64,000 nucleotides of DNA from a virus. The stretch lies in IMG/VR virus record IMGVR_UViG_3300045988_163070; one strand, 5' to 3'. Both the position numbers and the translations under genes were made by a program. Below, one piece after another: positions 24,106 to 47,395 of the stretch (the first letter of the stretch is position 1; each line of letters begins with the position of its first letter). The notes beneath the pieces were generated by a model, which had not been told where the DNA came from, did not search any database, and saw only the letters and a program-made list of their open reading frames with translations.

Positions 24106-24196
24106 ATTGGTTTGACTTTTAGTTTATTACATCAGTAAAGTTATCGTTAAATGACGAAGTTAGCAAACGGAAACTTCGCCATTTTAGCGCCATTTT
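24106..24196 (-). promoter_or_regulatory. conserved ~91-bp intergenic repeat, copy B
   Basis: See copy A at 16715. It fills the whole gap between the stop at 24196 and the annealase start at 24092. Confidence 0.5.
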
Positions 24197-24645
24197 TATA
24201 ATGGGTAATATGGAGTTCTTGGTTCTCTCCCATTACTCAAGTCAAGTGTGCGATAGTCGTTCAGAAGCTGCTTACTGAAATTAATTACACGTAAGCATGT
24301 GATTTCTGAAAACATCCCAATATGGGTATAATCAGAAGGTAGATCAAGCATTCTTGAAAGCCATGCGTAAGCTTCAGTTTTTTTCATGTAACCAAGCTCC
24401 CAAATCTTATCGAAATACTCGTGAGCTTGATGCTTCATTTTACGAAGTGGCCTTCGTGCAACTCTTCCTAATGCTCTATTAGTACCCTTGTGAACTCCTA
24501 CATATGCATCACATCCAGAACACAAATAGATCATTCCGTATGACCTTCGATAAACAACAGAACTATCGACAAACTCTGTTGGATTACCGCAATATGGACA
24601 TATCTTCCCAGCGATAATTAGTTTTTGTCTTTCGGTTAATTCCAT
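24196..24645 (-). CDS. zinc-ribbon protein (DUF3268-like)
   Basis: 149 aa. CPYCGNP ... CSGCDAYVGVHKGT ... LRKMKHQAHEYFD matches my memory of DUF3268. Confidence 0.45.
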   Translation of the reverse strand: MELTERQKLIIAGKICPYCGNPTEFVDSSVVYRRSYGMIYLCSGCDAYVGVHKGTNRALGRVARRPLRKMKHQAHEYFDKIWELGYMKKTEAYAWLSRMLDLPSDYTHIGMFSEITCLRVINFSKQLLNDYRTLDLSNGREPRTPYYPL

Positions 24646-24661
24646 AATAATACATTAATTG

Positions 24662-24744
24662 TGGACGGTAGAGGAATCGAACCCCTCCCACTCGTTTTGA
24701 ATTGGTTGCGCAACACGAAGCTCTAACCGATAAGCTAACCGTCC
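24662..24744 (-). tRNA. tRNA-like gene with a 17-nt anticodon loop (identity undetermined)
   Basis: Perfect 7-bp acceptor GGACGGT/ACCGTCC. D-arm GCTT-ATCGGTTA-GAGC. T-arm AGGGG-TTCGATT-CCTCT. 5-nt variable loop. Anticodon stem TCGTG/AACGA encloses TTGCGCAACCAATTCAA. Confidence 0.6.
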
Positions 24745-24837
24745 GAGGAAAGATATACTATCCTCACGAACCGTACACCTTGAATTAAAACACAAATACA
24801 AAACTACATGATACTATTAATCACCTTCATGGGTTTG

Positions 24838-25000
24838 CGAAGTAGAAAGGAGTCGAACCTCTAAACTTTGCAACAGGATTTTTCGTTTCAGTGTCTGATT
24901 GTGCATATGTGGGGATTTAATAGTTTGATTTTCCCACTCGTGATGCTATTCGTGCATTGTCACCACTGAAACTAAGCGTCTACCATTCCGCCACTACTTC
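24838..25000 (-). ncRNA. 163-nt tRNA-like RNA: class-II (Leu-like) tRNA body with a ~70-nt insert capping an extended anticodon helix
   Basis: Acceptor GAAGTAG/CTACTTC. D-arm GCG-GAATGGTAGA-CGC. T-arm AGAGG-TTCGACT-CCTTT. 12-position helix TTAGTTTCAGTG/CACTGAAACGAA with one A.G mismatch. Confidence 0.5.
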
Positions 25001-25086
25001 ATTTCGTTGCCAGCCGCTGCTGGCAACTTTGATTGATTTGATTAAAATATTAACCTTTGATTGATTTCACCCTCACGGGCTACTTG

Positions 25087-25218
25087 TGCCAAGAGACGGA
25101 TTCGAACCGCCGACCTCTGCTTGTGGTGCTCTCCCGTTGAGCTAAGAGTATTTCTTGAGAGACTCGAACTCCCAACCTTCCACCACACACAGCGCTCTAT
25201 CCACTGAGCTATCCAAGC
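25087..25218 (-). ncRNA. 132-nt double tRNA-like RNA (outer tRNA frame plus nested permuted T-arm/D-arm module)
   Basis: Outer: GCTTGGA...TCTTGGC acceptor (4 WC, 2 GU, 1 mismatch), D-arm GCTC-AGTGGATA-GAGC, T-arm GGCGG-TTCGAAT-CCGTC. An 11-12 bp helix replaces the anticodon arm. Inner: GGGAG-TTCGAGT-CTCTC and GCTC-AACGGGA-GAGC. Confidence 0.5.
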
Positions 25219-25284
25219 AAATGCCCGGATTTTTATTCCGGGCTAATCTAATCACAAACGTTAAAATCATCCTCACGGACTTTC

Positions 25285-25338
25285 GTGCAAGTCCCGGCAT
25301 CGAACCGAGAAGAAAGCCACTTTCCAGAAAACTAACAC
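25285..25338 (-). ncRNA. possible 54-nt mini tRNA-like element (acceptor-like helix plus T-arm)
   Basis: GTGTTAGT/ACTTGCAC helix (one T.T, one G.U). Hairpin GAAAG-TGG-CTTTC. T-arm CTCGG-TTCGATG-CCGGG. This is the weakest member of the cluster. Confidence 0.25.
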
Positions 25339-25407
25339 CTAAACAAAAACTATATGGCAAACGACCTATTATAAAACTGGAAAGCCCTTATCTTGCATCC
25401 TTGAATA

Positions 25408-25593
25408 CTATTCCTTTTTAGAAATTTTCTCCTCGTATACACCTCGGAACACATACATAAGAAATACCATTATAATAATGATCACAGAAGCTGTATACTC
25501 TTTATAACTGGCATTTATGCCATCCCCTAACCAAATTGCCGCCCAAATGCCAACAATAGAAACTACATTTTGAGAAATTCTTAATGCTTTCAT
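25408..25593 (-). CDS. small membrane protein
   Basis: 61 aa with two hydrophobic helices (VVSIVGIWAAIWL, SVIIIIMVFLMYVF). Confidence 0.45.
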   Translation of the reverse strand: MKALRISQNVVSIVGIWAAIWLGDGINASYKEYTASVIIIIMVFLMYVFRGVYEEKISKKE

Positions 25594-25904
25594 CTCTTAG
25601 ATTTTTTGCTACGTTTACTTTTCTTGTTTGAGCACTTGCAATGCAGCAACACCTGAGCTGCATTGCAACGCCACTTCCCATTTTGTTTATTGACAGGTTT
25701 ATCGCTATCAATTTTACCTGCCTCAATAAGACTGATCAACTTCTTTTCACCCCCTACTATATATGCTGATTTATCTTTTCCAAATGCCTCTGATGACATT
25801 ATACGGAGTATATTATCAAGCAAAATCATAGCCATTCCAGGTGTGATAATATATCCGCGAAGAATGGATATATTATCGCTTTCTTGTAACAGTGACGATC
25901 CCAT
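25590..25904 (-). CDS. hypothetical protein with basic C-terminus
   Basis: 104-aa ORF overlapping both neighbours. KKSKRSKKSKR tail. Confidence 0.4.
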   Translation of the reverse strand: MGSSLLQESDNISILRGYIITPGMAMILLDNILRIMSSEAFGKDKSAYIVGGEKKLISLIEAGKIDSDKPVNKQNGKWRCNAAQVLLHCKCSNKKSKRSKKSKR

Positions 25905-29652: not shown

Positions 29653-29727
29653 AAGTGATGGGCGGACTCGAACCGCCGACCTCATGCATATTAAGACATG
29701 CGCTCTAACCAACTGAGCTACACCACC
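29653..29727 (-). tRNA. tRNA with Ile-like body and an 8-nt anticodon loop CUUAAUAU
   Basis: GGTGGTG TA GCTC AGTTGGTTA GAGC G CATGT CTTAATAT GCATG AGGTC GGCGG TTCGAGT CCGCC CATCACT T. All arms are in register except for one extra loop nucleotide. Confidence 0.7.
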
Positions 29728-33134: not shown

Positions 33135-34313
33135 ATGGCTACATTTTCATTGGTAATTGTCCCAGCTAAAAAACTATCAGACGGGACACATAAAATAAGA
33201 ATCAGAGTAGCACATAACTCTGATACAAGATTCATCACAACAGAAATTGTCGTTCGTGAAAACGAATTTAAGAACGGAAAGATAGTCCAACGCCCAGACA
33301 AAGATTTCCTCAACATAAAATTGCAGGAATGGTATAACACGTACTTCAAACGCTATATAGAATTAGAGCATGCAGAATCGTTAACTTGCGCCCAATTAGT
33401 TAAGATGATAACAAACCCTATTAATGGCGAACGTAATCGCAAATTTGAGGATATCGTTGAAGAATTCCTCTCACAGATCGATGAGGATGATAGAGAAAAA
33501 ACGCATAAACTTTATAAATTGGCCGCTAAACATTTTATTCGGTTTACTGGTCCAAGTACACTCATGGAACACATAACACCAATCCGGATTAATAACTATC
33601 TAACGCATTTAAGGAAGAGCAAACTCTCTCCTACCTCAATCAAAATCTATATTACACTATTGAAAGTGATAATAAACTATGCCATCAAGATGAGATACGT
33701 AGAATATAAGGTAGATCCATTTGTCACAGCTTCCATTCCTTCAGCTAAGAAAAGAGACACACATATCACAGTTGAACAACTAAAGATTATTAGAGATATG
33801 GTACCTAATCAATATAACGTATCAGTAGTTCGCGACATTTTCATGCTTACTTATTATTTAGCCGGCATGAACTTAGTTGATATGCTGGCTTACGACTTCC
33901 GGACCGACATTGTAGATTACATCAGAATCAAGACAAGGAATACTAAAGATGGTGACCGGTTGACTTCGTTTGCGATTCCTGATGAAGCAAAACCTCTCAT
34001 CAAGAAATATATGAATAAGAATACCGGAAAGCTCGTATTTGGAAAGTATAAAACCTATGTATCCTGTTATAATACACTCACCCGGAAAATGAAAGTTCTG
34101 AAAACAGTAGCAGGCGTTACTCACAACTTAACATTATATTCAGCTCGCAAATCATTCGTTCAACATGGATACGACTTGGGAATTCCTCTTAGCACATTAG
34201 AATACTGTATCGGTCAGTCAATGAAAGAAGATCGTCCAATCTTCAATTATGTATCAATCATGAAAAAGCATGCTGATAAAGCGATACGCGAGATACTTGA
34301 TAATCTGAAATAA
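33135..34313 (+). CDS. int: tyrosine recombinase / phage integrase
   Basis: 392 aa. N-terminus MATFSLVIVPAKKLSDGTHKIRIRV and a SAM-like domain typical of Bacteroidota-type integrases. C-terminal catalytic region LYSARKSFVQHG...YV. Confidence 0.8.
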   Translation: MATFSLVIVPAKKLSDGTHKIRIRVAHNSDTRFITTEIVVRENEFKNGKIVQRPDKDFLNIKLQEWYNTYFKRYIELEHAESLTCAQLVKMITNPINGERNRKFEDIVEEFLSQIDEDDREKTHKLYKLAAKHFIRFTGPSTLMEHITPIRINNYLTHLRKSKLSPTSIKIYITLLKVIINYAIKMRYVEYKVDPFVTASIPSAKKRDTHITVEQLKIIRDMVPNQYNVSVVRDIFMLTYYLAGMNLVDMLAYDFRTDIVDYIRIKTRNTKDGDRLTSFAIPDEAKPLIKKYMNKNTGKLVFGKYKTYVSCYNTLTRKMKVLKTVAGVTHNLTLYSARKSFVQHGYDLGIPLSTLEYCIGQSMKEDRPIFNYVSIMKKHADKAIREILDNLK

Positions 34314-37541: not shown

Positions 37542-38024
37542 TTATTGATATAAACTTAGATCAACAGCATCTTTCTTTTTCCAACCAGCAGCTAATGTGC
37601 GCTGAACAAAAACCATTTCCTTAGTATAAAAGTCCGTCAGATTTTCCAAGGTATTAAATTCATAGTAGACAGGTTCATCATCTGTTCCAAATTTAAATCT
37701 TACTGGTAAAGAGGTACCGTCTGTCTGCACTGCAAGATCATAGGCTGATTTATAATTGAACTGGTTTTCCTGTGATAACCATACAGGTATGCCATTATAG
37801 GTAAATCCGGACATGATCTCGTTATTTATCTCCTGATTATACCAGTTAATAACCATAACCTTTACCTCCTCACTGGTAGGCTTATAAGAGAACTCCTCTT
37901 CCATATAGGAAGCATTTCCCTCTTGCTCACTTGGCTGTACATCCCAACGTACACGCCACTTATTTTTCACCGGATTTACACACTCAAAGAGCGATACACC
38001 GGAACTTCCTTCTACTCGTTTCAT
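37542..38024 (-). CDS. hypothetical protein (DUF4376-like), translationally coupled to the RT
   Basis: 160 aa. Its ATG overlaps the RT stop (TAATG). GIPVWLSQENQFNYKSAYDLA resembles fibre-associated DUF4376, from memory only. Confidence 0.5.
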   Translation of the reverse strand: MKRVEGSSGVSLFECVNPVKNKWRVRWDVQPSEQEGNASYMEEEFSYKPTSEEVKVMVINWYNQEINNEIMSGFTYNGIPVWLSQENQFNYKSAYDLAVQTDGTSLPVRFKFGTDDEPVYYEFNTLENLTDFYTKEMVFVQRTLAAGWKKKDAVDLSLYQ

Positions 38025-39340
38025 TAGCTAAATACATATTTTGTTCGACCTTTACCGAACGTCTCCGTCTTAATCGTTGTTTCAAACGGAAAACCATCCG
38101 GCATACTTGAAATTTGTTGGAGGATATTTTTCATTTCCTCCGAATTGGTGAAGAACTTCTTCATTTCACCATTTTGCTCAATTGAGACAATACAACGGTC
38201 TTCTCCCTGCTCTGTTTTAATACCCATTTCATAATCTTTCACTATGATAGGGAGATTTACCAATTCTCTTATGGAAACAACTGTGCCTGGAAAACGCTTC
38301 TTCCCGTCTTCCGGCTTGTAAGTGACGTTTAAATCTTTGAAACTTTTCATTTTTATGCCTGTTAATTTATAAAATAGATTCTTGCAATCGGCATGCTTTA
38401 CCAAGCCATAAAAAGAGGCAATGAGTTCTTTACGACGTCTACGGCTTTTCACTTTATGAAGCCTACGAGCAAAGTTCTGTTTGTTCCTTTTGCGTACACG
38501 GGTATGATCCGGATAAATAACGAAGCCTAAGAAATCAATACCTTGCTTGGTTGGAAATACACGTTCAATCTTTTTAATCACAAGATTTATCTTAGCCACC
38601 TGCAGACACACAATATTACGCATCTTCCAAAGAACTTTTTTGCTCCCATTCAAAACACGCCCGTCGTCACAATACCGGAAATAGTGCTTCACGCCTTCCC
38701 GGTCCTTCAGGACATGGTCGATAAAAATGGATAACAGAAGATTACCAAGCCCCTGCGAACTTCTTAATCCTATGCTTATTCCCTTTTGCATCACGTCCAC
38801 GAATCCGGAAAGTAGCTGAATGAGCTTATTATCCTTAAACACCTTATTAACACAGTATTTCATAAAATCATGATCAACATTCTCATAAAATTTACGAATA
38901 TCAAAAGTGTAACAGAACTCTGTTCCTTGTGCATCATTCCCTATCGAATCACGTACATAACATAATAGATCGTGTGTACCACGTCCTTTTATAGATGCAG
39001 ATGTAGTCCGGATAAAACGACCTCGCAAATGTTCATCTACAACTTTCATAATTGCATGCACAGCAACCCGTTCTTTCAAAGAAAAAATTTGGATGCGACG
39101 TAGTTTACCACCTTCAAAGACCTCCTTTTCAAAAAAATTACTAACTTTAAAACTGCCATTACGAATCCTTTCTGTCAATTCGTCAATGACTTCTTTTTTA
39201 TGCGCAATAAGAGTTCTCCCTGAACGGCTGCGTTTACGTTTCCGACCTCGCAACACTGTCCAGAAAGACTCTTCCATATTTTCAGGAGTTATTATCTCCT
39301 CAATGATATTGCCTTCTCTACGCATAATTTTTGCCTTCAA
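38024..39340 (-). CDS. DGR-type reverse transcriptase
   Basis: 438 aa. RT motifs FDIRKFYENVDH, SIGLRSSQGLGN (the IGxxxSQ hallmark of DGR RTs), RYCDDGRV (YxDD), GIDFLGF. TR lies 206 nt upstream. Confidence 0.88.
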   Translation of the reverse strand: MKAKIMRREGNIIEEIITPENMEESFWTVLRGRKRKRSRSGRTLIAHKKEVIDELTERIRNGSFKVSNFFEKEVFEGGKLRRIQIFSLKERVAVHAIMKVVDEHLRGRFIRTTSASIKGRGTHDLLCYVRDSIGNDAQGTEFCYTFDIRKFYENVDHDFMKYCVNKVFKDNKLIQLLSGFVDVMQKGISIGLRSSQGLGNLLLSIFIDHVLKDREGVKHYFRYCDDGRVLNGSKKVLWKMRNIVCLQVAKINLVIKKIERVFPTKQGIDFLGFVIYPDHTRVRKRNKQNFARRLHKVKSRRRRKELIASFYGLVKHADCKNLFYKLTGIKMKSFKDLNVTYKPEDGKKRFPGTVVSIRELVNLPIIVKDYEMGIKTEQGEDRCIVSIEQNGEMKKFFTNSEEMKNILQQISSMPDGFPFETTIKTETFGKGRTKYVFS

Positions 39341-39545
39341 CTTTCTGGGCCCAACTTCTTCGAGAATCCCAATAAAGGGAAACCTACCAAACTCTACCCA
39401 ACGATGTATGTTTCAGTTTTCCAGTCTTGCGACTGCTGTTACTGAGGCTCATCCCCCTCGGCTCAATGATGAGTAACTCGTACTCCTTATCGTACGCCGA
39501 TTAATTTCTTCAGGCACTAACGTCCAAATTCGTTTAAATTGTTTC

Positions 39546-39656
39546 CGAGCCGGGAACCGTTGTTCGCAGACGCATTCGATGAATCGTTACCGCAATTCGC
39601 ATACGAGACACCGCCGTTCGGGTTCGCGTTGTTGTTCGACCGAAAGACCACACGAG
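39546..39656 (-). repeat. DGR template repeat (TR)
   Basis: 111 bp matching 39898-40008 at 105/111 positions. Read in gene sense it is AAC-codon-rich. Confidence 0.88.
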
Positions 39657-39829
39657 TCTATGGGGGAATCCACCTACGGGGGTACAAAATTAACAATTTA
39701 TTCATCTTGACAAAAGATTAAGTAAGTTATATTTTCGCCGGGCTTCGCCCGGATTTGTGCCGTTCGGGAAGAGCAGCACAAATCCGAACATGGCTAAACG
39801 TTTTCCGATTTAGTCGCTTCGCTCCCGCT

Positions 39830-42800
39830 TTACGATTCCGATTTCAACGATTTGTACGCTTCAACGCTCTCCGCGACCTCGATTTGACCGCGGAAGGCGA
39901 GCCGGGAACCGTAGTTCGCAGACGCATTCGATGAATCGTAACCGCAATTCGGATACGAGACACCGCCGGGCGGGTTCGCGTTGCTGTTCGACCGAAAGAC
40001 CACACGAGAAGCTGCTGCGCTCGGTTGGAATTCATCACAATAATAGGTTGTACTACTACCAGCCTGTGAAAAAGCAGCAATCACATCACAATATTTTTGA
40101 TGAACCATACCAGTTGCAAAACCACCGGTTGTACCGGAACGAACTTTACGTACCGTACCGTCAGGCATCTCAATATTTAACTTATACTGCTCTTGTGCAT
40201 TAGTATTAGGTAAACCAACTTTATCCATCCATTCATATTTGTCACCATACCAACTTTCATAACCCATACAGTTACTTGAAGGAATACGAGTATGAACTAT
40301 TCTACCATCGGCATCCTTTGAGATATACCAAGAATATTCAGTTTTATGCACACCATCTGAATCATAGCTTACAGTATCCTGCATACCGATTACGGCAGTA
40401 GTTCCGACTATCCGGTTATTTGTATTTTGACCATAACCGCATTGATCTTGTGCATCACGACGACCATATGCTGCATAGAACAAGTTAGCTACATCTTTGT
40501 GCATCTCCCAGTCCACAAGTTGCAAATTACGTTGTTGTGCATAATAGTGAAAATCGGATTGAGACATACTACCAACACTTGCAGAAGTATTAAAAGCAGA
40601 ATAAAGAGAATTACCAATAGAGATTGCTTCACCGACACCTGTCAGACAAGGCAGGTGTTCAACCCAATCCGGCTCCATATCCTCAATCTTGTCACTGTTG
40701 GATAATACAACAAGGTCAAATTCTGCGTTATTGAAGATCGTGAAATAAAGGAAAGCAGCTCTTTCCGGAACGTCTGCAATAAGATACATTCCTTCAGCAA
40801 ACTTATTGTTAAGACTCGGAACGGTCAAATCCTTTATAACATTACCGGATGCGTCTACGAAGATACTGCCAATCAAGCCGGTTCCTAACGTGGTCGGGAA
40901 ACGGACACGCTTATGCTTGGAAACATCGACACCGCAAACACTATAATTCGTGTCTGAAGAATAGCTGTCCGTCAAGGTAGCACGACCAATCAGAATCTTA
41001 GATTTCTCCTTATAAAGCCCGGATTCCCGGATATTGGAAAGATAAACTTTATCACATACCGGTATATCCGGAATTTCGGTATTGGAACTGTAACAGGTGT
41101 ACTTCTTGTTGTTAAGGTAGTCATTAATTCCTTTATACCAATAGTGAGGTTCATACATCCAAAGATCACCCTCCGTACTATCCAATTTGGCAGGAGTAGC
41201 ACCGGATATTTTCTCTGAATCGGCATAATAATTAGAGTTCTCATCGTGTAGATTGCAAATCACCATTTTACCTTTCTCAGTCTGCTTACCTAAAACACGA
41301 TGACGTTTAGCCAGGATCTTAGTAATATGTCCGTTGGCTACATAGCTGTTACCGTATTTATAGCCGGTCAGATTGTCGAGGTTGCTGATATTAGCATCAT
41401 CGGCAACAGTGTCATCAAACTCAATCATCGTATATTTAGGCTGAATGATGGTCAGCTCCGGGAAATGAGCAACGGCTGCTTCATATTCTTCATCAGTCAT
41501 GGAACGGGTAAGACGATAGGTTCCCACCAGGCGACAGGAAGATACATTACCGCCATTCTCATCAACACCTCCCATTTCCATAAGGTTTCTAATCAGCGTA
41601 CCGTCTCCTTCCATATCAATACCAGTAATACGAAGGTATCTGACAGCCGGACACGCTGTGAGCAGTCTTTGCCAGTCGATCAGTGCGCAACTATCGACAA
41701 CAAGGCGATTAGTATTAACCGTACCCTCTAATGTCAGATTGTCGTTAGATAATTTGTTCAAGTATCGTAATTCAAGCGTCTGAAGAGTAGCAGGAAGAAC
41801 AGCAACGGACAAGGGAGAACCAGGTGCAAAAGATACTCCCGTTAATGCAGATTTACCAGCACGGAAAGTCTCAAGTTTGGAATTTGAAGATAAATCCATA
41901 GAAGTAAAGTTTTCACTTTGCAACCCGGTAAGGTTCAACTCACGCAGATTCTTACACTTGTCAACTAAAAGTGCGTTCATGGTCTTTTGCGTAGCCGAAC
42001 AACTGATATTCAAAACTCGCAATGCTACGCAATTGCTTAGATTTAGAGTACCGACAATAGCATGGCTAACATTAGTCAGATCAAGACCTAACATACGGGA
42101 TGCACCGTAGAAGTATTGAGGATCATTGACTATCAAATCCGTGTCGAGCGTCAGTTCGACAATACTGCCGGCATCTTCAGCGAGCACACCACTTTGTTTC
42201 GGTTCGCCGGACGTGTACCCATAGCCGAAGTAATAACGTTCGCTGGCGGTTATCTTAACCTTACGCTTATCAGTAGAGAACTTATAACCAAAATAGATAG
42301 GGAATGAATCCTGTCGGTATGTACCTGCAAGATATTGGCTATCCAAAAGAGCAAAACGGTTTTGGATCGTGAATGTACGGTGAGCGTAACGACTACCTTG
42401 AAGGGCGTACAGGTAGTCATAGTATTTTGTACCCTCCGAAGTCGTAACACCCTCTGTTAAAGGCTTGATATACTTGTATTCTCCGTCCTTATTATAAATC
42501 CTCTCGCACCAATTACCCATCAGTTGGTTATTGAAGATATCAAGTACATACTCGGTGCTCATATTACTACGGATATTCCCGGCAACTTCCTGCAATTTCT
42601 CCGGCCAAGAGCGGACAAGTTTCCAAAGTATGGAGTCGTGACCGGCCATTGCATAGGAGCCAATAGAATCATCAAAGGTTTCCCATGTCATAGTATAGTC
42701 ATACTTCAGTACGGAGTCATTACGTCCGCCTAAAATCGTATCCATGTCATAAGGAAGAATATACCAGTGAACACCGTCCCAAGTGCAGAACATCATGTTC

Positions 42801-45800
42801 TTTGCCCGGCTGTCAACAGCCATCAAATAGTCAGTGATTATGTACCAACCGAACAAGCTGTTTACATTAAAGTAATCGGCACATTCTGCACGGAACCGGG
42901 CGGGGTCATTTTTTACCGAATTAATCCATGTCCAAAGGCGGGTTACAGCGTCTTTATCCTCTTGGTCGGCATCTTCCCATGTCTTATCCGGCTTAAAACG
43001 GAATTCCAAACCGTCAGCGAAGTTTTCAGCAGTTATGTTGGAAGTACCGAAGAGGCACAACGGATGAGAATTGTTCAAGAACTCAAGGCAGATACATTTG
43101 TTACGGTCGCCATTCAAAGCGGCTAAATCATTGAATCCGGCAATACCTTCAAAACCGTAGACATTGTGAGAATCGCTCTTTTCGTTATTGAAATTGTACT
43201 TACCCAAATAGGTATTTACACCGGTATTATCATTATCGTAGAACAAGTCCATCGGAAAACCATCAACACCGATACGAACACTGCCGTCTATTTCCTGTGG
43301 GGGTGTCAGCCAGCCACATTTCTTCCATGTGTCATTGACCAGTCTCACACCACCAGTATTGTGCGTTGATGATGAGTCGGAGAAATCAGCCTTCAAACAG
43401 AAAATACCCACACGTTTGGCGCCGGGTTTGAATGAATACATCAAGTCCGGAACATCGACACCATTCACTTCCAAAGTCGTTCCATATTTATCGAAACGTT
43501 CAAAGTAGATACGGTAGTTCTTTCGCGGATAGGTAGTAGACGATGTACCCTGTATCCGAAGTCCTGCATTACGAAGTACAAAATCATACTCCTTGCCATA
43601 TGCAGAATAGAAATACACGTCAACAGGCACTTCAAACTTTTTGTTGTTCGTTGCATTAACAAGTTCGACATCACCAACAAAGCGCATGACAGATTTACCT
43701 TGTACACGAAGCTTTTCTATATCCACATCCGAGCCGTCGTCATTCATAACATCGTTTTTCTGGAATAGAACAACCATTTCCTCTGATGTCGGACGGTCTA
43801 CCATGTAGTTGGTCAGCTCTTCATCATCAGTCAGACCACGCCGGTAGATACGCAAATTGCGCAACTCGATATCGGCTGCATCGGAAGATACAGTAATATT
43901 TACCGGAGCTTCCTGCTTCATACTTTCAGTCTGTGAGTACTGTTTCGCACCACAACGGATACCATTTACGTACAATTCTATCAAACGAGTACCGGACTTC
44001 TTGCCGATAACGAAAGCTATTTTCAGATTCAGATCGGAAGCAAAAAGTGTATTGACAGAACTTCCTCCGGAAGCGGTTATTTTCGCTTCCTGTGTTGTCA
44101 TCTGGAATCCTATTCCACCGGACATACACGAAAGAATGACACCGTTACGATCAGTTACATTCGAACACTTCAATTCAAATTCATACGTAGCACCGTTCGA
44201 TACGGCATCATTGGCAAGGGGTTGTTTAAGAATCTCTATTGTAGCTCCATTAGTTAACTGCAAAGAGTCACCAGTCCAACCATTACTATTCCAATCAAAC
44301 CCGGTAAACTTGGTTGTTACCTCGCCATCAGTCCAAACTGCCGGATTTTCTTCGGTGTTACTACGACCGGCAGCCGAAAGTTTTAAATCAAGGTCTGCTT
44401 GTACTTCCTCGATATCAATAGAGGATTTTGCAACGTGGACTAAGAAATCATATTCAGTGTTGCCGCAAGAGAACCGCATTGCATACTCTCCCTGCTCGGT
44501 GAACCGGTTTGTATATACCTGAACGGTACGCGGCACACTTACTGTCTGTGTTTTGGTGCCATTGTTGTACACGGACATTTCAGCAGGGGTTTTGCTCGGA
44601 TCGTAAACAACAAAATCGAATTGCAGTTTCTCATATTGACCGACTTCAAGGCGTGGTGTCAAATGATCATCCGTAAAGATGCGGCCGTCCGGGAAGCGAT
44701 GCATCATGCCGATACTGGGAGCAGAAGAACCCTCTTTGAATATATCCAAGTAGATACTTTCAGAGCGAACGGTAAGATCGGCAGAAGCTTCCATTTCAGC
44801 AACCATCTGCACGGTATGCCGACCAGGTAAAAGGTCAGACATGGAAATACTGAAGCTGCTGTTCGTTTGCCCGGATTTAGTAATAGTCTTGGAGTCTTTC
44901 TGAACACCATCAACATACAACATGACAACTTTGTTGCCTGTTCCCGAAATGGTGAACGGAATGGATGCAGTTGCACCGGCTGCATAGCCGCCAACAGGAG
45001 AAGCAATGTTATAAGTAGAACTCAAAGATAACGTAATAACTTTGACGGACGTGTATGCCTGTTTAGTCTGCTTCTTGCCTTCCGGATCGGTAGTTGTTGC
45101 CTTTACATAGATATCCGTTGTTCCCAAAAGCAAATACTTACTCAAATCAAGGGTATATGTACCCTTAGATACATCGTTAATAGTCTCTGTGTACACAGTT
45201 TGAGCACCTCGAAGCATCTGTATGGTAAGCGTAGCTTTCTGCCCAGTAGATTCGCCCTTGTCATCTCCGGAACTATATTGGTGATCGTAGAAATAGGTAA
45301 GATGAGAAGAACCACCCTCTTTGATAATGCTGTTATCTACCGAAGCATTGAGGACAATCTTTGTTGCAGTACCGGTTTCTCCGCCGCCACCGCCTGTACC
45401 GCCTTGAAATTCCGTACTGGCTATTTCTGCACCGGACTTGTTTTTCAAACTTAGCTTAACAGTATTATTATCCTCGTCAACCTCGGATTCGAGTGTGAAA
45501 ACAGTATTGGCTTCAATCTCATTAAATTTAGCAGTTACAGGAGCGTTCTGAATGGCATTTGTTGAGTTGGCATCCAAACTTTCATCTGTTTGAGGAATTT
45601 CGACATTGAAAGATACACCACCACTTTCATCCGGAGTATGCTTTTCACCGTTGAAAGTAATTTCTTTCACAGCTCCTGCACCACCGTATTCATTCCAAGC
45701 AGCCGGCTGATCGAAAGCTGTTATGTCGTTTGATTCAAAACGATAATCTTTCCATTTCCCAGCAGACTCCTCGAAAGTAATAATCATGCCGGGCTTCTCT

Positions 45801-47395
45801 TCATCCTTGACTTTAGCTCCAGAAACGGCTGTTACTGCTGTTTCTTTTGTATAGAAGCCAGTATTTAAAGGATGAAGTTTAGTTACGTTATAAAAGCCAC
45901 TACCTGAACCGGAACCACCGGAGATTTCTTCCCACTCACTCCACTTCTCACCTGTCATCTTACGTTGTTTCAACACACCACCGGTATAATACGTAGACAG
46001 GAAGATTTGGGTAATGGCATCATCCTCACCGTACCGGGACACAACTAAAATATCACTTGAATAAGTGTCTGCATCAGCCACAATATAATAGCCGGAGTTA
46101 ACAACAGAATCAATATCAGTATAAAGGACTGTATTGAAAAAATGAAGCATATCTATATTTGACAGATTCTTGTAGAAATCCTCTTCAGTACCCTTATACC
46201 CTTTGCCTTTTGCATCTTCATAGGTATTAACCTCATTCCATGAGTCCGGTACATAATCACTGCCGACATATACATAAGTATGATATTTACCTACTTTATC
46301 TAAGAATGAACATTTGATACCAATGTTCCTTAGCTCAATAGGAACAAGGTATATAGCCTTATCTAATGTGAATCTGTTTGTATTATCACTCGGATCGACA
46401 TGATATAAAGATACATTATAGTCAGTAACGCTCGTTATTCTCCAACTACCCCACTCTCCGTTTTTTCGCTGTCTCTGATATACGAACCCACACTCATAGC
46501 GTATTTGTTCATAAATGTTCTCATCAAGTATCGTAGTAGCCAAAAGACCTTTTATATCCTTGAATTCATTTCGTTCATCTTCATTATACCGATAAGTAAA
46601 CAAGCCGGCAGTACCAAACACCTCATCTAAATCTCTTAGATCGTTCAAGAAATCCAAGTCTATAACAATACTACCACAAACATTTATGGCTGCCAATAGT
46701 TTTTTCAATTCTCCCCAAACAGAGCCATCATCACTTTTAGATGTCTCTTTTGTTCCAAGAGCTTCCTGTAATTTAGCTTCGGTTGACATCCATTTCCCCC
46801 AAGTTGTGTTACCACTGGAAACAACACCACTCCGGGACAAAGTAATAACCGGTCCTACGGTTACTTCAGTAGCCGTACTGTTATTCATTGCATCAAGTTG
46901 GATGCACGATGTAAACGACTGATAAACATTATTGAGTCCCAACCGCTCTACTTGAATATTGAGAGGAATACTGGTAGAACCAGGCGCAAATACACAACGG
47001 TAATTTCCAACAGAGGAATTACCTTCATATAAAGAATTGAGTTTTGATTTTAAGTTAGCCAGTGAATCAATCGTACCCAAACTTTTAAAAGGATCAGTAA
47101 GAGGATTTGATTTTGTTGAAGTGCCTAATATCCTTTTCAACAGTTCAGCATCTCCTTCAGTTATACTCTTCTCTGCATCTGTAATACGATTCTTAAAATC
47201 CTCCAAATCTTTATTAATATAAGCGGATATAGCGTCAGTTAAATCCTGTACCAATATTTTCCGCCCACCACTAATCTCAACATACATATCATCAGACAAA
47301 GATTTCACGGCAGTAAGCTGCTCTATCGTGAAACTATTTGTCTTTAACGCTTGCAGCACAAGGCTGACAATCTGCTGTTTCTCCGTTTCTGTCAT
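39830..47395 (-). CDS. giant tail fibre / receptor-binding protein, DGR target (LamG-like, CotH-like, LRR, C-terminal CLec-type VR)
   Basis: 2521 aa. LamG-like (IELYVNGIRCG...LRNLRIYRRGLTDDE). CotH-like (DYLMAVDSRAKNMMFCTWDGVHWYILPYDMDTILGG). LRRs (LDLTNV..LNLSNC..LRVLNIS..LRELNLTGL). C-terminus RVVFRSNSNANPPGGVSYPNCGYDSSNASANYGSRLAFRG overlaps VR. Confidence 0.85.
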   Translation of the reverse strand: MTETEKQQIVSLVLQALKTNSFTIEQLTAVKSLSDDMYVEISGGRKILVQDLTDAISAYINKDLEDFKNRITDAEKSITEGDAELLKRILGTSTKSNPLTDPFKSLGTIDSLANLKSKLNSLYEGNSSVGNYRCVFAPGSTSIPLNIQVERLGLNNVYQSFTSCIQLDAMNNSTATEVTVGPVITLSRSGVVSSGNTTWGKWMSTEAKLQEALGTKETSKSDDGSVWGELKKLLAAINVCGSIVIDLDFLNDLRDLDEVFGTAGLFTYRYNEDERNEFKDIKGLLATTILDENIYEQIRYECGFVYQRQRKNGEWGSWRITSVTDYNVSLYHVDPSDNTNRFTLDKAIYLVPIELRNIGIKCSFLDKVGKYHTYVYVGSDYVPDSWNEVNTYEDAKGKGYKGTEEDFYKNLSNIDMLHFFNTVLYTDIDSVVNSGYYIVADADTYSSDILVVSRYGEDDAITQIFLSTYYTGGVLKQRKMTGEKWSEWEEISGGSGSGSGFYNVTKLHPLNTGFYTKETAVTAVSGAKVKDEEKPGMIITFEESAGKWKDYRFESNDITAFDQPAAWNEYGGAGAVKEITFNGEKHTPDESGGVSFNVEIPQTDESLDANSTNAIQNAPVTAKFNEIEANTVFTLESEVDEDNNTVKLSLKNKSGAEIASTEFQGGTGGGGGETGTATKIVLNASVDNSIIKEGGSSHLTYFYDHQYSSGDDKGESTGQKATLTIQMLRGAQTVYTETINDVSKGTYTLDLSKYLLLGTTDIYVKATTTDPEGKKQTKQAYTSVKVITLSLSSTYNIASPVGGYAAGATASIPFTISGTGNKVVMLYVDGVQKDSKTITKSGQTNSSFSISMSDLLPGRHTVQMVAEMEASADLTVRSESIYLDIFKEGSSAPSIGMMHRFPDGRIFTDDHLTPRLEVGQYEKLQFDFVVYDPSKTPAEMSVYNNGTKTQTVSVPRTVQVYTNRFTEQGEYAMRFSCGNTEYDFLVHVAKSSIDIEEVQADLDLKLSAAGRSNTEENPAVWTDGEVTTKFTGFDWNSNGWTGDSLQLTNGATIEILKQPLANDAVSNGATYEFELKCSNVTDRNGVILSCMSGGIGFQMTTQEAKITASGGSSVNTLFASDLNLKIAFVIGKKSGTRLIELYVNGIRCGAKQYSQTESMKQEAPVNITVSSDAADIELRNLRIYRRGLTDDEELTNYMVDRPTSEEMVVLFQKNDVMNDDGSDVDIEKLRVQGKSVMRFVGDVELVNATNNKKFEVPVDVYFYSAYGKEYDFVLRNAGLRIQGTSSTTYPRKNYRIYFERFDKYGTTLEVNGVDVPDLMYSFKPGAKRVGIFCLKADFSDSSSTHNTGGVRLVNDTWKKCGWLTPPQEIDGSVRIGVDGFPMDLFYDNDNTGVNTYLGKYNFNNEKSDSHNVYGFEGIAGFNDLAALNGDRNKCICLEFLNNSHPLCLFGTSNITAENFADGLEFRFKPDKTWEDADQEDKDAVTRLWTWINSVKNDPARFRAECADYFNVNSLFGWYIITDYLMAVDSRAKNMMFCTWDGVHWYILPYDMDTILGGRNDSVLKYDYTMTWETFDDSIGSYAMAGHDSILWKLVRSWPEKLQEVAGNIRSNMSTEYVLDIFNNQLMGNWCERIYNKDGEYKYIKPLTEGVTTSEGTKYYDYLYALQGSRYAHRTFTIQNRFALLDSQYLAGTYRQDSFPIYFGYKFSTDKRKVKITASERYYFGYGYTSGEPKQSGVLAEDAGSIVELTLDTDLIVNDPQYFYGASRMLGLDLTNVSHAIVGTLNLSNCVALRVLNISCSATQKTMNALLVDKCKNLRELNLTGLQSENFTSMDLSSNSKLETFRAGKSALTGVSFAPGSPLSVAVLPATLQTLELRYLNKLSNDNLTLEGTVNTNRLVVDSCALIDWQRLLTACPAVRYLRITGIDMEGDGTLIRNLMEMGGVDENGGNVSSCRLVGTYRLTRSMTDEEYEAAVAHFPELTIIQPKYTMIEFDDTVADDANISNLDNLTGYKYGNSYVANGHITKILAKRHRVLGKQTEKGKMVICNLHDENSNYYADSEKISGATPAKLDSTEGDLWMYEPHYWYKGINDYLNNKKYTCYSSNTEIPDIPVCDKVYLSNIRESGLYKEKSKILIGRATLTDSYSSDTNYSVCGVDVSKHKRVRFPTTLGTGLIGSIFVDASGNVIKDLTVPSLNNKFAEGMYLIADVPERAAFLYFTIFNNAEFDLVVLSNSDKIEDMEPDWVEHLPCLTGVGEAISIGNSLYSAFNTSASVGSMSQSDFHYYAQQRNLQLVDWEMHKDVANLFYAAYGRRDAQDQCGYGQNTNNRIVGTTAVIGMQDTVSYDSDGVHKTEYSWYISKDADGRIVHTRIPSSNCMGYESWYGDKYEWMDKVGLPNTNAQEQYKLNIEMPDGTVRKVRSGTTGGFATGMVHQKYCDVIAAFSQAGSSTTYYCDEFQPSAAASRVVFRSNSNANPPGGVSYPNCGYDSSNASANYGSRLAFRGQIEVAESVEAYKSLKSES
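39898..40008 (-). repeat. DGR variable repeat (VR) inside the 3' end of the fibre gene
   Basis: Differs from TR at 6 positions. Five of these are adenines in TR (gene sense): AAC to AGC, AAC to CCC (2 nt), AAC to TAC twice. The sixth is G to C. Confidence 0.88.

Follow-up and report, generated by a model that had tools for sequence, protein, structure and literature searches.

The window analysed here is the whole 64,000-nucleotide (nt) viral sequence filed in IMG/VR as IMGVR_UViG_3300045988_163070. It belongs to a temperate Bacteroides phage and encodes a terminase, ParB, an SNF2 helicase, SSB, a RecE-like exonuclease, an Erf-like annealing protein, an integrase and a reverse transcriptase. 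On its minus strand lies a 163-nt tRNA-like RNA gene, here called element B, to which a first-pass annotation had drawn attention. B is a class-II, Leu-like tRNA frame in which the anticodon arm is prolonged as a 10-12-bp helix capped by a 70-nt domain, which we call the cargo. The element is real and conserved, and no catalogued family explains it. Its parts are as follows; RNA position i corresponds to window coordinate 25001-i.

24838..25000, minus: element B, whole, a 163-nt tRNA-like RNA gene; RNA position 1 is 25000 and the discriminator G is 24838
24994..25000, minus: acceptor 5' strand GAAGUAG; partner CUACUUC at 24839-24845
24976..24991, minus: D-arm GCG-GAAUGGUAGA-CGC, class-II Leu-like, including the G18G19 equivalents; stem and GG invariant in 10/10 variants
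24964..24975, minus: long helix P1, 5' strand UUAGUUUCAGUG, that is, anticodon stem plus extension; partner at 24882-24893
24894..24963, minus: cargo domain, exactly 70 nt (RNA positions 38-107)
24936..24958, minus: invariant cargo core AAUGCACGAAUAGCAUCACGAGU, which contains hairpin P2 and is identical in all variants
24943-24957, minus: hairpin P2, AUGC-ACGAAUA-GCAU, predicted by RNAalifold
24909..24937, minus: hairpin P3, GUGGG...CCCAC, with a 17-19-nt loop containing CUAUU; compensatory changes
24896..24905, minus: small hairpin P4, 2-3 bp, in the 3' tail of the cargo; one pair U-A to C-G, weak support
24882..24893, minus: long helix P1, 3' strand CACUGAAACGAA, partner of UUAGUUUCAGUG
24863..24881, minus: variable region, 19 nt, with a short hairpin (RNAalifold pairs columns 125-127 with 135-137, compensatory)
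24846..24862, minus: T-arm AGAGG-UUCGACU-CCUUU, with one G.U pair; 3/5 pairs changed on both sides
24839..24845, minus: acceptor 3' strand CUACUUC, followed by the discriminator G (24838) and then CA; CCA is not encoded

The acceptor, the D-arm, the T-arm and a variable region of about 20 nt had all been proposed in the first-pass annotation and were found in place, as was the insert of precisely 70 nt. That annotation had also described a helix of 12 positions with a single A.G mismatch. The helix is present in the window, where P1 has 12 positions and a 1x1 A.G as its sole mismatch, but only 10-11 of these are conserved among variants, the outermost G-C being paired in 3/10. One of the two hairpins that it placed in the insert, GUGGG..CCCAC, covaries between variants; the other, GUGA..UCAC, is confined to the window clade, the relative LoVEphage having GUAA at this site. 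In the variable region, the stem CUG/CAG pairs cleanly in the LoVEphage clade but less well in the window.

Homologues were searched for by exact-pattern scans of IMG/VR and GTDB, in which the query was either the core of the insert or the helix with any insert; the same set was obtained each way. It comprised about 40 IMG/VR contigs and nine Bacteroides/Phocaeicola genome contigs from GTDB, which gave about 10 distinct sequences. The nine GTDB contigs appear to carry prophages. Database relatives of the B region were only Bacteroides/Phocaeicola phages (LoVEphage, PV4-TP1, BI-TP1 and BS-TP2), and when more distant relatives were sought by exact-pattern scans of the same two databases, the same narrow family was found again. 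Candidate B-carrying lysogens are P. vulgatus BM8 (PV4-TP1), B. intestinalis BG4 (BI-TP1), B. acidifaciens DSM 15896 and B. oleiciplenus YIT 12058, together with LoVEphage lysogens of B. thetaiotaomicron, P. dorei and P. vulgatus (PMC12629997). The GenBank record of LoVEphage has the B homologue annotated as 'tRNA-His / tRNA-Undet, two pieces'. One copy, in contig L018 (9431-9605, minus; cf. L037:978-1152), ends after the variable arm; the deletion joins B to the C-terminal part of the exonuclease gene, with loss of the two open reading frames (ORFs) in between. This short copy is either a natural deletion variant or an assembly artefact.

Evidence for the structure came from a 10-sequence alignment with a hand-written structure, in which 94.3% of the cells were paired, as compared with 36-44% when the partners were slid. 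Eleven pairs had changes on both sides: four in the acceptor, three in the T-arm, two in P3, one in the long helix and one in P4. When the alignment was shuffled, 2/500 shuffles matched the 11 double-changed pairs, and 0/500 matched the covariation score or the percentage paired. RNAalifold, which was not given the hand-written structure, returned the same helices plus the hairpin of the variable arm, with 13 compensatory pairs. The acceptor, double-changed in 4/7 pairs, reads GAAGUAG/CUACUUC, GGAUAAG/CUUAUCC, GAAUAAG/CUUAUUC or GAAGGAA/UUCCUUC depending on the variant, the T-arm stem AGAGG/CCUUU or CCCGG/CCGGG, and the P3 stem GUGGG/CCCAC, GUCAGG/CUUGAC, GUUGGG/CCCGAC or GUAAGG/CCUUAC, with further wobble changes. 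In P1, five variants have A-U at column pair 35/112 and the other five have U-A; the A.G mismatch is invariant. The G.U pairs of B fit the minus-strand sense only. U8, the D-loop G18G19 and the T-loop GGUUCGA are invariant in 10/10 variants.

The most conserved part of B is not the tRNA body: 26/28 columns are invariant in the 5' half of the cargo, as compared with 13/24 in the T-arm and 3' acceptor strand. The cargo core AAUGCACGAAUAGCAUCACGAGU, which occurs once in the window, includes P2 as the conserved proximal hairpin of the domain. The P2 loop contains AAUAG, which is complementary to the CUAUU of the P3 loop, so that a kissing contact between the two is possible. As a single sequence, B has a minimum free energy of -37.6 kcal/mol (z = -1.4), and 18/200 shuffles folded equally well. 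It is comparison, and not thermodynamics, that sets B above chance as a structured RNA gene with its tRNA elbow intact.

Rfam was scanned with the whole window in gathering mode, with 24550-25350 at E <= 10 and with seven array loci (described below) at E <= 1. Such a scan had been called for in the first-pass annotation; B had no family match at E <= 10. Its cargo matched no Rfam family in any of these scans, and the cargos of the array loci were likewise unmatched. The matches obtained around the tRNA-like genes were to tRNA, weakly to YrlA (on the neighbouring gene C) and weakly to BTnc049. ARAGORN did not report B in default mode. Once the cargo had been deleted, constructs of B were recognised by ARAGORN as tRNA cloverleaves with its intron option switched off.

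A scan for the helix with any insert led to a sister family, B2, of 147 nt (15 distinct sequences aligned; copies in L153-L186 and at L109:5432-5578). B2 combines the frame of B with the acceptor of the LoVEphage B (GGAUAAG/CUUAUCC) and with the helix UUAGUUUG/CAAACGAA, A.G mismatch included. Its cargo (..AAUACGGCUGGCUAGCCUCGAAGCAGGAAAGACGAUYGGGGAAGUCAGAACCRCAAUUGAAACGUA) is unrelated to that of B and has another fold, and no candidate anticodon stands beside it. A third cargo is found on a B-type helix in contig L173. Judged from these sequences, one scaffold is reused with three unrelated cargos, those of B, B2 and L173; no 7-mer is shared by the different cargos outside the scaffold. The helix pair beside the cargo is C-G in the B family and G-C in B2. 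Covariation of the long helix, on which the first-pass annotation had made its proposal depend, was therefore found both here and at 35/112, where A-U is exchanged for U-A in 5/10 variants. B thus has the architecture of a tRNA scaffold, with intact acceptor, D and T arms and a heterologous structured RNA on the anticodon stem. We infer from the alignments that the cargo stands exactly for the anticodon triplet of a loop UU-NNN-AA, the ends of which pair and so lengthen the stem.

B is not alone in the window. Three further tRNA-like genes were found, and none of the four (4/4) has a 7-nt anticodon loop.

24662..24744, minus: neighbour A, Arg-like frame with a 17-19-nt anticodon loop; Rfam tRNA 39.9 bits; ARAGORN 'tRNA-???'
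25087..25218, minus: neighbour C, Ile-like frame with a 12-position helix and one G.A mismatch; Rfam tRNA 39 bits, with a 70-nt insertion
29653-29727, minus: tRNA-Ile-like gene with an 8-nt loop, CUUAAUAU; ARAGORN 'tRNA-???, taat'

The loop of A contains the palindrome GUUGCGCAAC, and a homologue of A in Bacteroides phage BS-TP2 has a 16-nt loop and a compensated acceptor stem. We dismissed the reading of A as a UGA suppressor (ARAGORN 'SeC tca'), because the UCA is not conserved in the BS-TP2 homologue. The cargo of C is made up, in this order, of a T-arm, a 4-bp hairpin and a D-arm, which is a YrlA-like order, and from its sequence would amount to a second, permuted tRNA-like head. C scored 22.8 bits (E = 0.029) with the YrlA model RF02553, a weak match given the gathering score of 69. 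The C family counts 97 IMG/VR loci and 20 variants, with a nearly invariant cargo and differing outer acceptor stems. Upstream of the 29653-29727 gene stands the string GGTATTTGCTTTA, which it has in common with C-type loci. In relatives, the frame and stem of this gene carry a ~90-nt insert (L031:1893-2051, L138:10536-10695) or only a tri- or tetraloop (L061:1532-1602, L079:1806-1874, L068:3697-3766).

Phages syntenic with the window have, at the same position, arrays in which 3-6 tRNA-like genes follow one another, all of them lacking a canonical anticodon loop:

L109:3666-5578
L079:926-3015
L066:4815-6676
L138:10018-11587
L061:859-2494

They sit upstream of the module encoding Erf, RecE-like exonuclease, SSB and SNF2, and their cassettes are reshuffled between contigs. 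A Leu-like array frame, GAAGGAAUGGCGGAAUUGGUAGACGC...CCCGGUUCGAGUCCGGGUUCCUUCAC, recurs in versions of 99, 107, 115, 128 and 147 nt, and the Leu-like lengths include 164 nt as well. Ile-like frames contain a ~90-nt insert, a C-type cargo or a tri-/tetraloop cap (CAUGU-UUUU-ACAUG), and another frame is capped ACGCA-GAUA-UGCGU. The acceptor stems of the tetraloop-capped frames pair, though their sequences differ. A 'tRNA' with its stem capped by a tetraloop cannot decode. A few kb from tRNA-like arrays we also observed sub-threshold matches to BTnc049, a Bacteroides small RNA (sRNA) family, at L061:6060-6176 (plus, 52.6 bits) and L109:1513-1619 (minus, 45 bits), the gathering score being 81.9.

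The gene neighbourhood of B is of three unrelated types (LoVEphage-type, L037-type and window-type), in each of which B shares its strand with the early replication and recombination genes; B thus travels as a mosaic module. None of the proteins encoded next to B in LoVEphage was found in the window, and B is 77-78% identical between phages that have no neighbour genes in common. No conserved protein partner beside B was common to the three contexts. In the window clade, a DUF3268 zinc-finger gene (24196-24645, minus, in the window) starts 16 nt past A; only 11 loci have such a gene after the array. A 104-aa protein of PHROG 18744 (unknown function) is the most frequent neighbour (91 loci); it is encoded upstream of the array, in the window at 25590-25904 (minus), and its sequence reads like that of a helix-turn-helix DNA-binding protein. 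In LoVEphage, the ORF downstream of B begins ~20 nt past the 3' end of the element.

Two features recur upstream of these genes:

25006..25027, minus: leader hairpin GUUGCCAGC-AGCG-GCUGGCAAC, ending 5 nt upstream of the 5' end of B
25067..25078, minus: leader motif CCGTGAGGGTGA (consensus YCGTGAGGRTRR), 78 nt upstream of B

Each copy of B and of B2 is preceded by a hairpin of 8-9 bp that ends 3-10 nt upstream and has a clade-specific sequence. The consensus YCGTGAGGRTRR has three perfect matches in the 64 kb, all on the minus strand (24758-24769, 25067-25078 and 25267-25278), one upstream of each of A, B and C. Seven matches were present in the window when one mismatch was allowed, a number reached by 0/100 shuffles. 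Of the 75 copies of the motif across all loci, 62 were followed by a tRNA-like gene at a distance of less than 150 nt. The motif is often found as the loop of a hairpin GGUGYRC...YRCACC with a U-run behind it; in B2 and in A-type units it makes up the loop of the leader hairpin, after which a run of U stands. It may serve as promoter, terminator, processing site or protein-binding site.

Is B a decoding tRNA? It has the cloverleaf with 7-bp acceptor, D-arm and T-arm, together with U8, G18G19 and a GTPsiC-type T-loop. It lacks a 7-nt loop with a conserved anticodon, the helix and the 70 nt standing there instead, and it stayed below the RF00005 gathering threshold, which was passed by A, C and B2 (32.4 bits). 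The would-be middle base of the anticodon flips from A to U along with its partner, which makes it a member of a helix pair rather than of an anticodon. B is therefore almost certainly unable to decode. A transfer-messenger RNA (tmRNA) was also considered and rejected: ARAGORN found none in the window, and pair 3-70 of B is A-U, so that there is no G3.U70.

We lean towards the view that the phage gene B specifies a tRNA-shaped noncoding RNA (ncRNA) that does not decode, a natural 'tRNA scaffold' whose cargo acts as an effector on a partner. B would be transcribed together with the early replication and recombination genes and excised as tRNAs are: RNase P would cut at the 5' end, and RNase Z or exonucleases, with CCA addition, would make the 3' end. 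The leader hairpin would stay behind on the upstream RNA and protect its 3' end. The product would be a stable RNA of ~163-166 nt. In it the tRNA body would serve as a handle for processing and stability, possibly binding tRNA-binding proteins, and the cargo would be the effector, with a partner conserved across Bacteroides and Phocaeicola hosts. Since the three phage contexts have no protein gene in common, the bound factor is more likely to come from the host. The likeliest setting would be phage-host conflict, where B would act as a decoy or inhibitor of a defence factor or of a factor of RNA metabolism; the array organisation and the shuffling of cassettes make such a role plausible. More tentatively, and with less conviction than for B itself, we suggest that B belongs to a previously unrecognised class: abundant temperate gut Bacteroides phages would possess arrays of anticodon-less tRNA scaffolds, each excised by the tRNA-processing machinery of the host, in which exchangeable cargos or merely a capped stem would act on host factors of defence or RNA metabolism, a modular, RNA-only toolkit for counter-defence or takeover.

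A quite different explanation is that B is a real tRNA-Leu with a new small intron, a 70-80-nt insert being removed by an endonuclease of the phage or the host and the halves joined (e.g. by RtcB) to yield a decoding tRNA. We regard this as improbable, and B is probably not an intron-containing tRNA. When introns were allowed, ARAGORN did identify B as tRNA-Leu(CAG) (c[24837,25000]), the intron being 71 nt long and the loop, UUCAGAC, well formed. The UUCAG of the 5' strand looks like a tRNA-Leu(CAG) loop, and the genes are arrayed like phage tRNA clusters. Eukaryal and archaeal pre-tRNAs have an anticodon-intron helix, which the pairing of intron and anticodon in B resembles. However, no splice yields a conserved anticodon on what is one Leu-type body. 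With the ARAGORN splice the window reads CAG (Leu), but the LoVEphage clade, spliced in this way by hand, reads CGG and has a poor stem; when the cut is made after position 36, the reading is CAG or CUG depending on the variant, with the body Leu-type throughout; and the splice alternatives on one B body read Leu, Gln or Pro. ARAGORN labelled the LoVEphage-clade copies tRNA-His, and that of L008 tRNA-Phe. In tRNA-Leu the discriminator A73 is an identity element. The discriminator of B is G in the window and A or U in other variants, which argues against a conserved Leu identity. The insert is moreover better conserved than the exons, B2 offers no candidate anticodon, related frames end in tetraloops, and a scan of IMG/VR for an uninterrupted tRNA with the B stem (an 'empty site') gave two chance matches only. 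Nor did any known type of intron fit. Group I introns have a catalytic core, P3-P9, and normally exceed 200 nt; the insert of B has 70 nt and no Rfam Intron_gpI match (gathering mode and E <= 10), in agreement with the first-pass annotation, which had judged it too small. A bulge-helix-bulge (BHB) motif consists of two 3-nt bulges with a 4-bp helix between them, at the exon-intron borders. P1 is continuous over 10-12 positions but for the 1x1 A.G mismatch, so that no BHB can be placed, as had also been noted at first pass, and a BHB intron was rejected. The Rfam scans gave no group II signal in B. As to the joining step, positions 39267-41448 of LoVEphage (L060, MW660583) encode an RtcB RNA ligase, followed by a PD-(D/E)XK 'MmcB-like' protein and a GIY-YIG protein, and this RtcB/PD-(D/E)XK block, ~10 kb downstream of the LoVEphage B copy, can be counted in favour of splicing. 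RtcB is absent from the window and from the other B contexts in the sequence examined, being found in LoVEphage only, and we did not retain RtcB-linked splicing. LoVEphage has, in addition, a separate cluster of eight canonical tRNAs at 17-858; the window has neither such a cluster nor the RtcB, PD-(D/E)XK and GIY-YIG genes.

The other alternatives accept that B does not decode. The tRNA body itself could be the functional unit, the genes providing anticodon-less decoys or sponges for enzymes or toxins that bind the acceptor, the T-arm or the elbow, with the cap mattering less; we think this rather unlikely, though it is the chief competitor of the effector-cargo view. Candidate targets would be tRNA-targeting defence nucleases, nucleotidyltransferase toxins and processing or modification enzymes, and disabling the anticodon would keep the decoys outside translation. 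This would fit with the non-canonical loops of all four window genes and of the arrays in relatives (3-4-nt caps, 8-nt and 17-19-nt loops, 35-90-nt inserts), with the use of several frames (Leu-, Ile- and Arg-like), with the invariance of the nucleotides engaged in tertiary interactions, and with the reshuffling of array cassettes between related phages, as is seen at accessory or counter-defence loci. A mere cap would not, however, explain why conservation in B peaks in the 5' half of the cargo, nor why the cargo of C is nearly invariant across differing outer frames, and no target system has been identified. It is very improbable that B is only a cis-acting 'tRNA punctuation' directing RNase P and RNase Z cuts in an early polycistron, with the excised RNA as a by-product. 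B does lie between same-strand genes in three operon contexts, a stable hairpin precedes the predicted RNase P site by 3-10 nt in each copy, which could stabilise the upstream mRNA as in MALAT1/mascRNA, and the downstream ORF of LoVEphage begins close to the 3' end of B; but punctuation needs neither a conserved 70-nt cargo, nor 3-6 consecutive elements with no ORFs between them, nor a cargo core that is invariant while the stems drift. Finally, we give hardly any credence to a decaying tRNA pseudogene, or to a DNA-level site (attP, origin structure) that keeps a tRNA-like sequence. Temperate phages often carry tRNA fragments at attP, the window has an integrase gene at 33135-34313, and one copy, in L018, is truncated. 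Against this, B lies ~8 kb from the integrase gene, the two strands of the acceptor, of the T-arm and of P3 change together, something that neither a pseudogene nor a partial attP copy would keep up, the G.U pairs are strand-specific, and 77-78% identity is kept between phages with no shared neighbour genes.

Several observations count against B being a scaffold that presents an effector cargo. Every step of that proposal beyond 'structured RNA gene' is an inference. The fold of B alone is unexceptional by thermodynamics (z = -1.4), and B did not match the Rfam tRNA model (RF00005) even at E <= 10. The family is narrow, with 10 distinct variants from ~4-5 lineages, and the shortened copy of L018 indicates that B can be lost. 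As P2 and the AAUAG/CUAUU contact never vary, covariation cannot test either of them. The invariant core had no antisense match at <=3 mismatches elsewhere in the window on either strand, and its 19-mer gave unrelated IMG/VR matches, in an apparent phage protein-coding gene, that appear to be due to chance. Sequence searches revealed no partner, target complementarity or linked protein for B. The tetraloop-capped relatives suggest that the tRNA body may work by itself, in which case the cargo as effector may be half the story.

A natural, conserved tRNA scaffold with swappable, arrayed cargos was not found in Rfam 15 or in the full-text literature searched. The closest counterpart is engineered: Ponchon and Dardel reportedly devised, in 2007, a 'tRNA scaffold' for recombinant RNA expression, an approach also covered in PMC3753655. 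In that design, as in B, an RNA replaces the anticodon loop on its stem and the acceptor, D and T arms are kept. The engineered chimera is processed and stabilised like a tRNA. It differs from B in being a laboratory design, B being natural, conserved and phage-encoded, with exchangeable cargos and with a processing and stability that are predicted. YrlA-type Y RNAs (RF02553; Chen et al. 2014, PMC4201824) resemble B in that they are ncRNAs in which a helix connects a tRNA-like module with another module, and YrlA is also found in phages and, in Salmonella, linked to RtcB. The ends of YrlA, however, form the Ro-binding stem and its tRNA-like part is permuted and internal, whereas the ends of B form a normal acceptor stem. 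B gave no match to RF02553 at E <= 10, only C doing so (22.8 bits). YrlA genes lie on the same strand as an rsr (Ro60/TROVE) gene and within a few kb of it; no Ro60/Rsr TROVE domain was detected in the 10 flanking ORFs (Pfam, PHROG) or in 10 further large ORFs of the window (Pfam). YrlA has a motif GNCGAAN0-1G near its 5' end (PMC4201824); the closest strings in B, GCACGAAUAG in the P2 loop and AAACGAAAA in the 3' strand of P1, both fail to fit it.

Intron-containing pre-tRNAs (archaeal and eukaryal with BHB; cyanobacterial tRNA-Leu with a group I intron) share with B an insert that lies in a Leu-type anticodon loop and prolongs the stem. Unlike them, B has no BHB, matches no Rfam intron family and is about one third as large as a group I intron; its anticodon is not conserved, and its insert is more conserved than the exons. 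The mascRNA of MALAT1 and the TMER units of MHV68 are tRNA-shaped non-decoders that act as RNase P/RNase Z handles, and their structure protects the end of the upstream RNA. In contrast to B they are eukaryotic or herpesviral, and their partner RNA lies beside the tRNA-like unit and not inside an anticodon arm. The stable RNAs C and D of phage T4 (species 1 and 2), of unknown function, are co-located and co-processed with tRNAs. Like B, they are phage-encoded RNAs amid tRNA-type genes; they are not known as tRNA frames with cargo. tmRNA also combines a tRNA-like acceptor and T-arm with a large internal domain, but B differs from it by the lack of G3.U70, by a full D-arm and anticodon stem, and by the absence of a pseudoknot ring and of a credible tag frame.

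Non-decoding relatives of tRNA are thus familiar as ncRNAs (Y RNAs, mascRNA, viral TMERs), and tRNAs serve biotechnology as scaffolds; there is a substantial chance that the wider set of anticodon-less scaffolds described here is a new class. If the cargos are effectors, they would constitute a new phage-host interface in Bacteroides, for which we know of no Hfq-type sRNA biology, and a source of naturally optimised stable RNA modules. Because tRNA finders miss such genes or report them as 'tRNA-His/Undet with intron' or 'tRNA-???', counts of phage 'tRNAs' in gut viromes may include non-decoders. According to a 2025 study, no inducible temperate phage is more common in human gut viromes than LoVEphage (~8% of viromes), which can be induced from cultured hosts (PMC12629997). 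As B sits in LoVEphage-like phages, which are common in the gut, its RNA is probably made in many human guts, and the inducibility of LoVEphage in culture makes the decisive experiments feasible.

Elsewhere in the window, Rfam identified an RT-3 RNA (130 bits) at 39346-39502 (minus), directly upstream of the reverse-transcriptase gene (38024-39340, minus) and downstream of a 2521-aa ORF (39830-47395, minus). Together the three look like the cassette of a diversity-generating retroelement.

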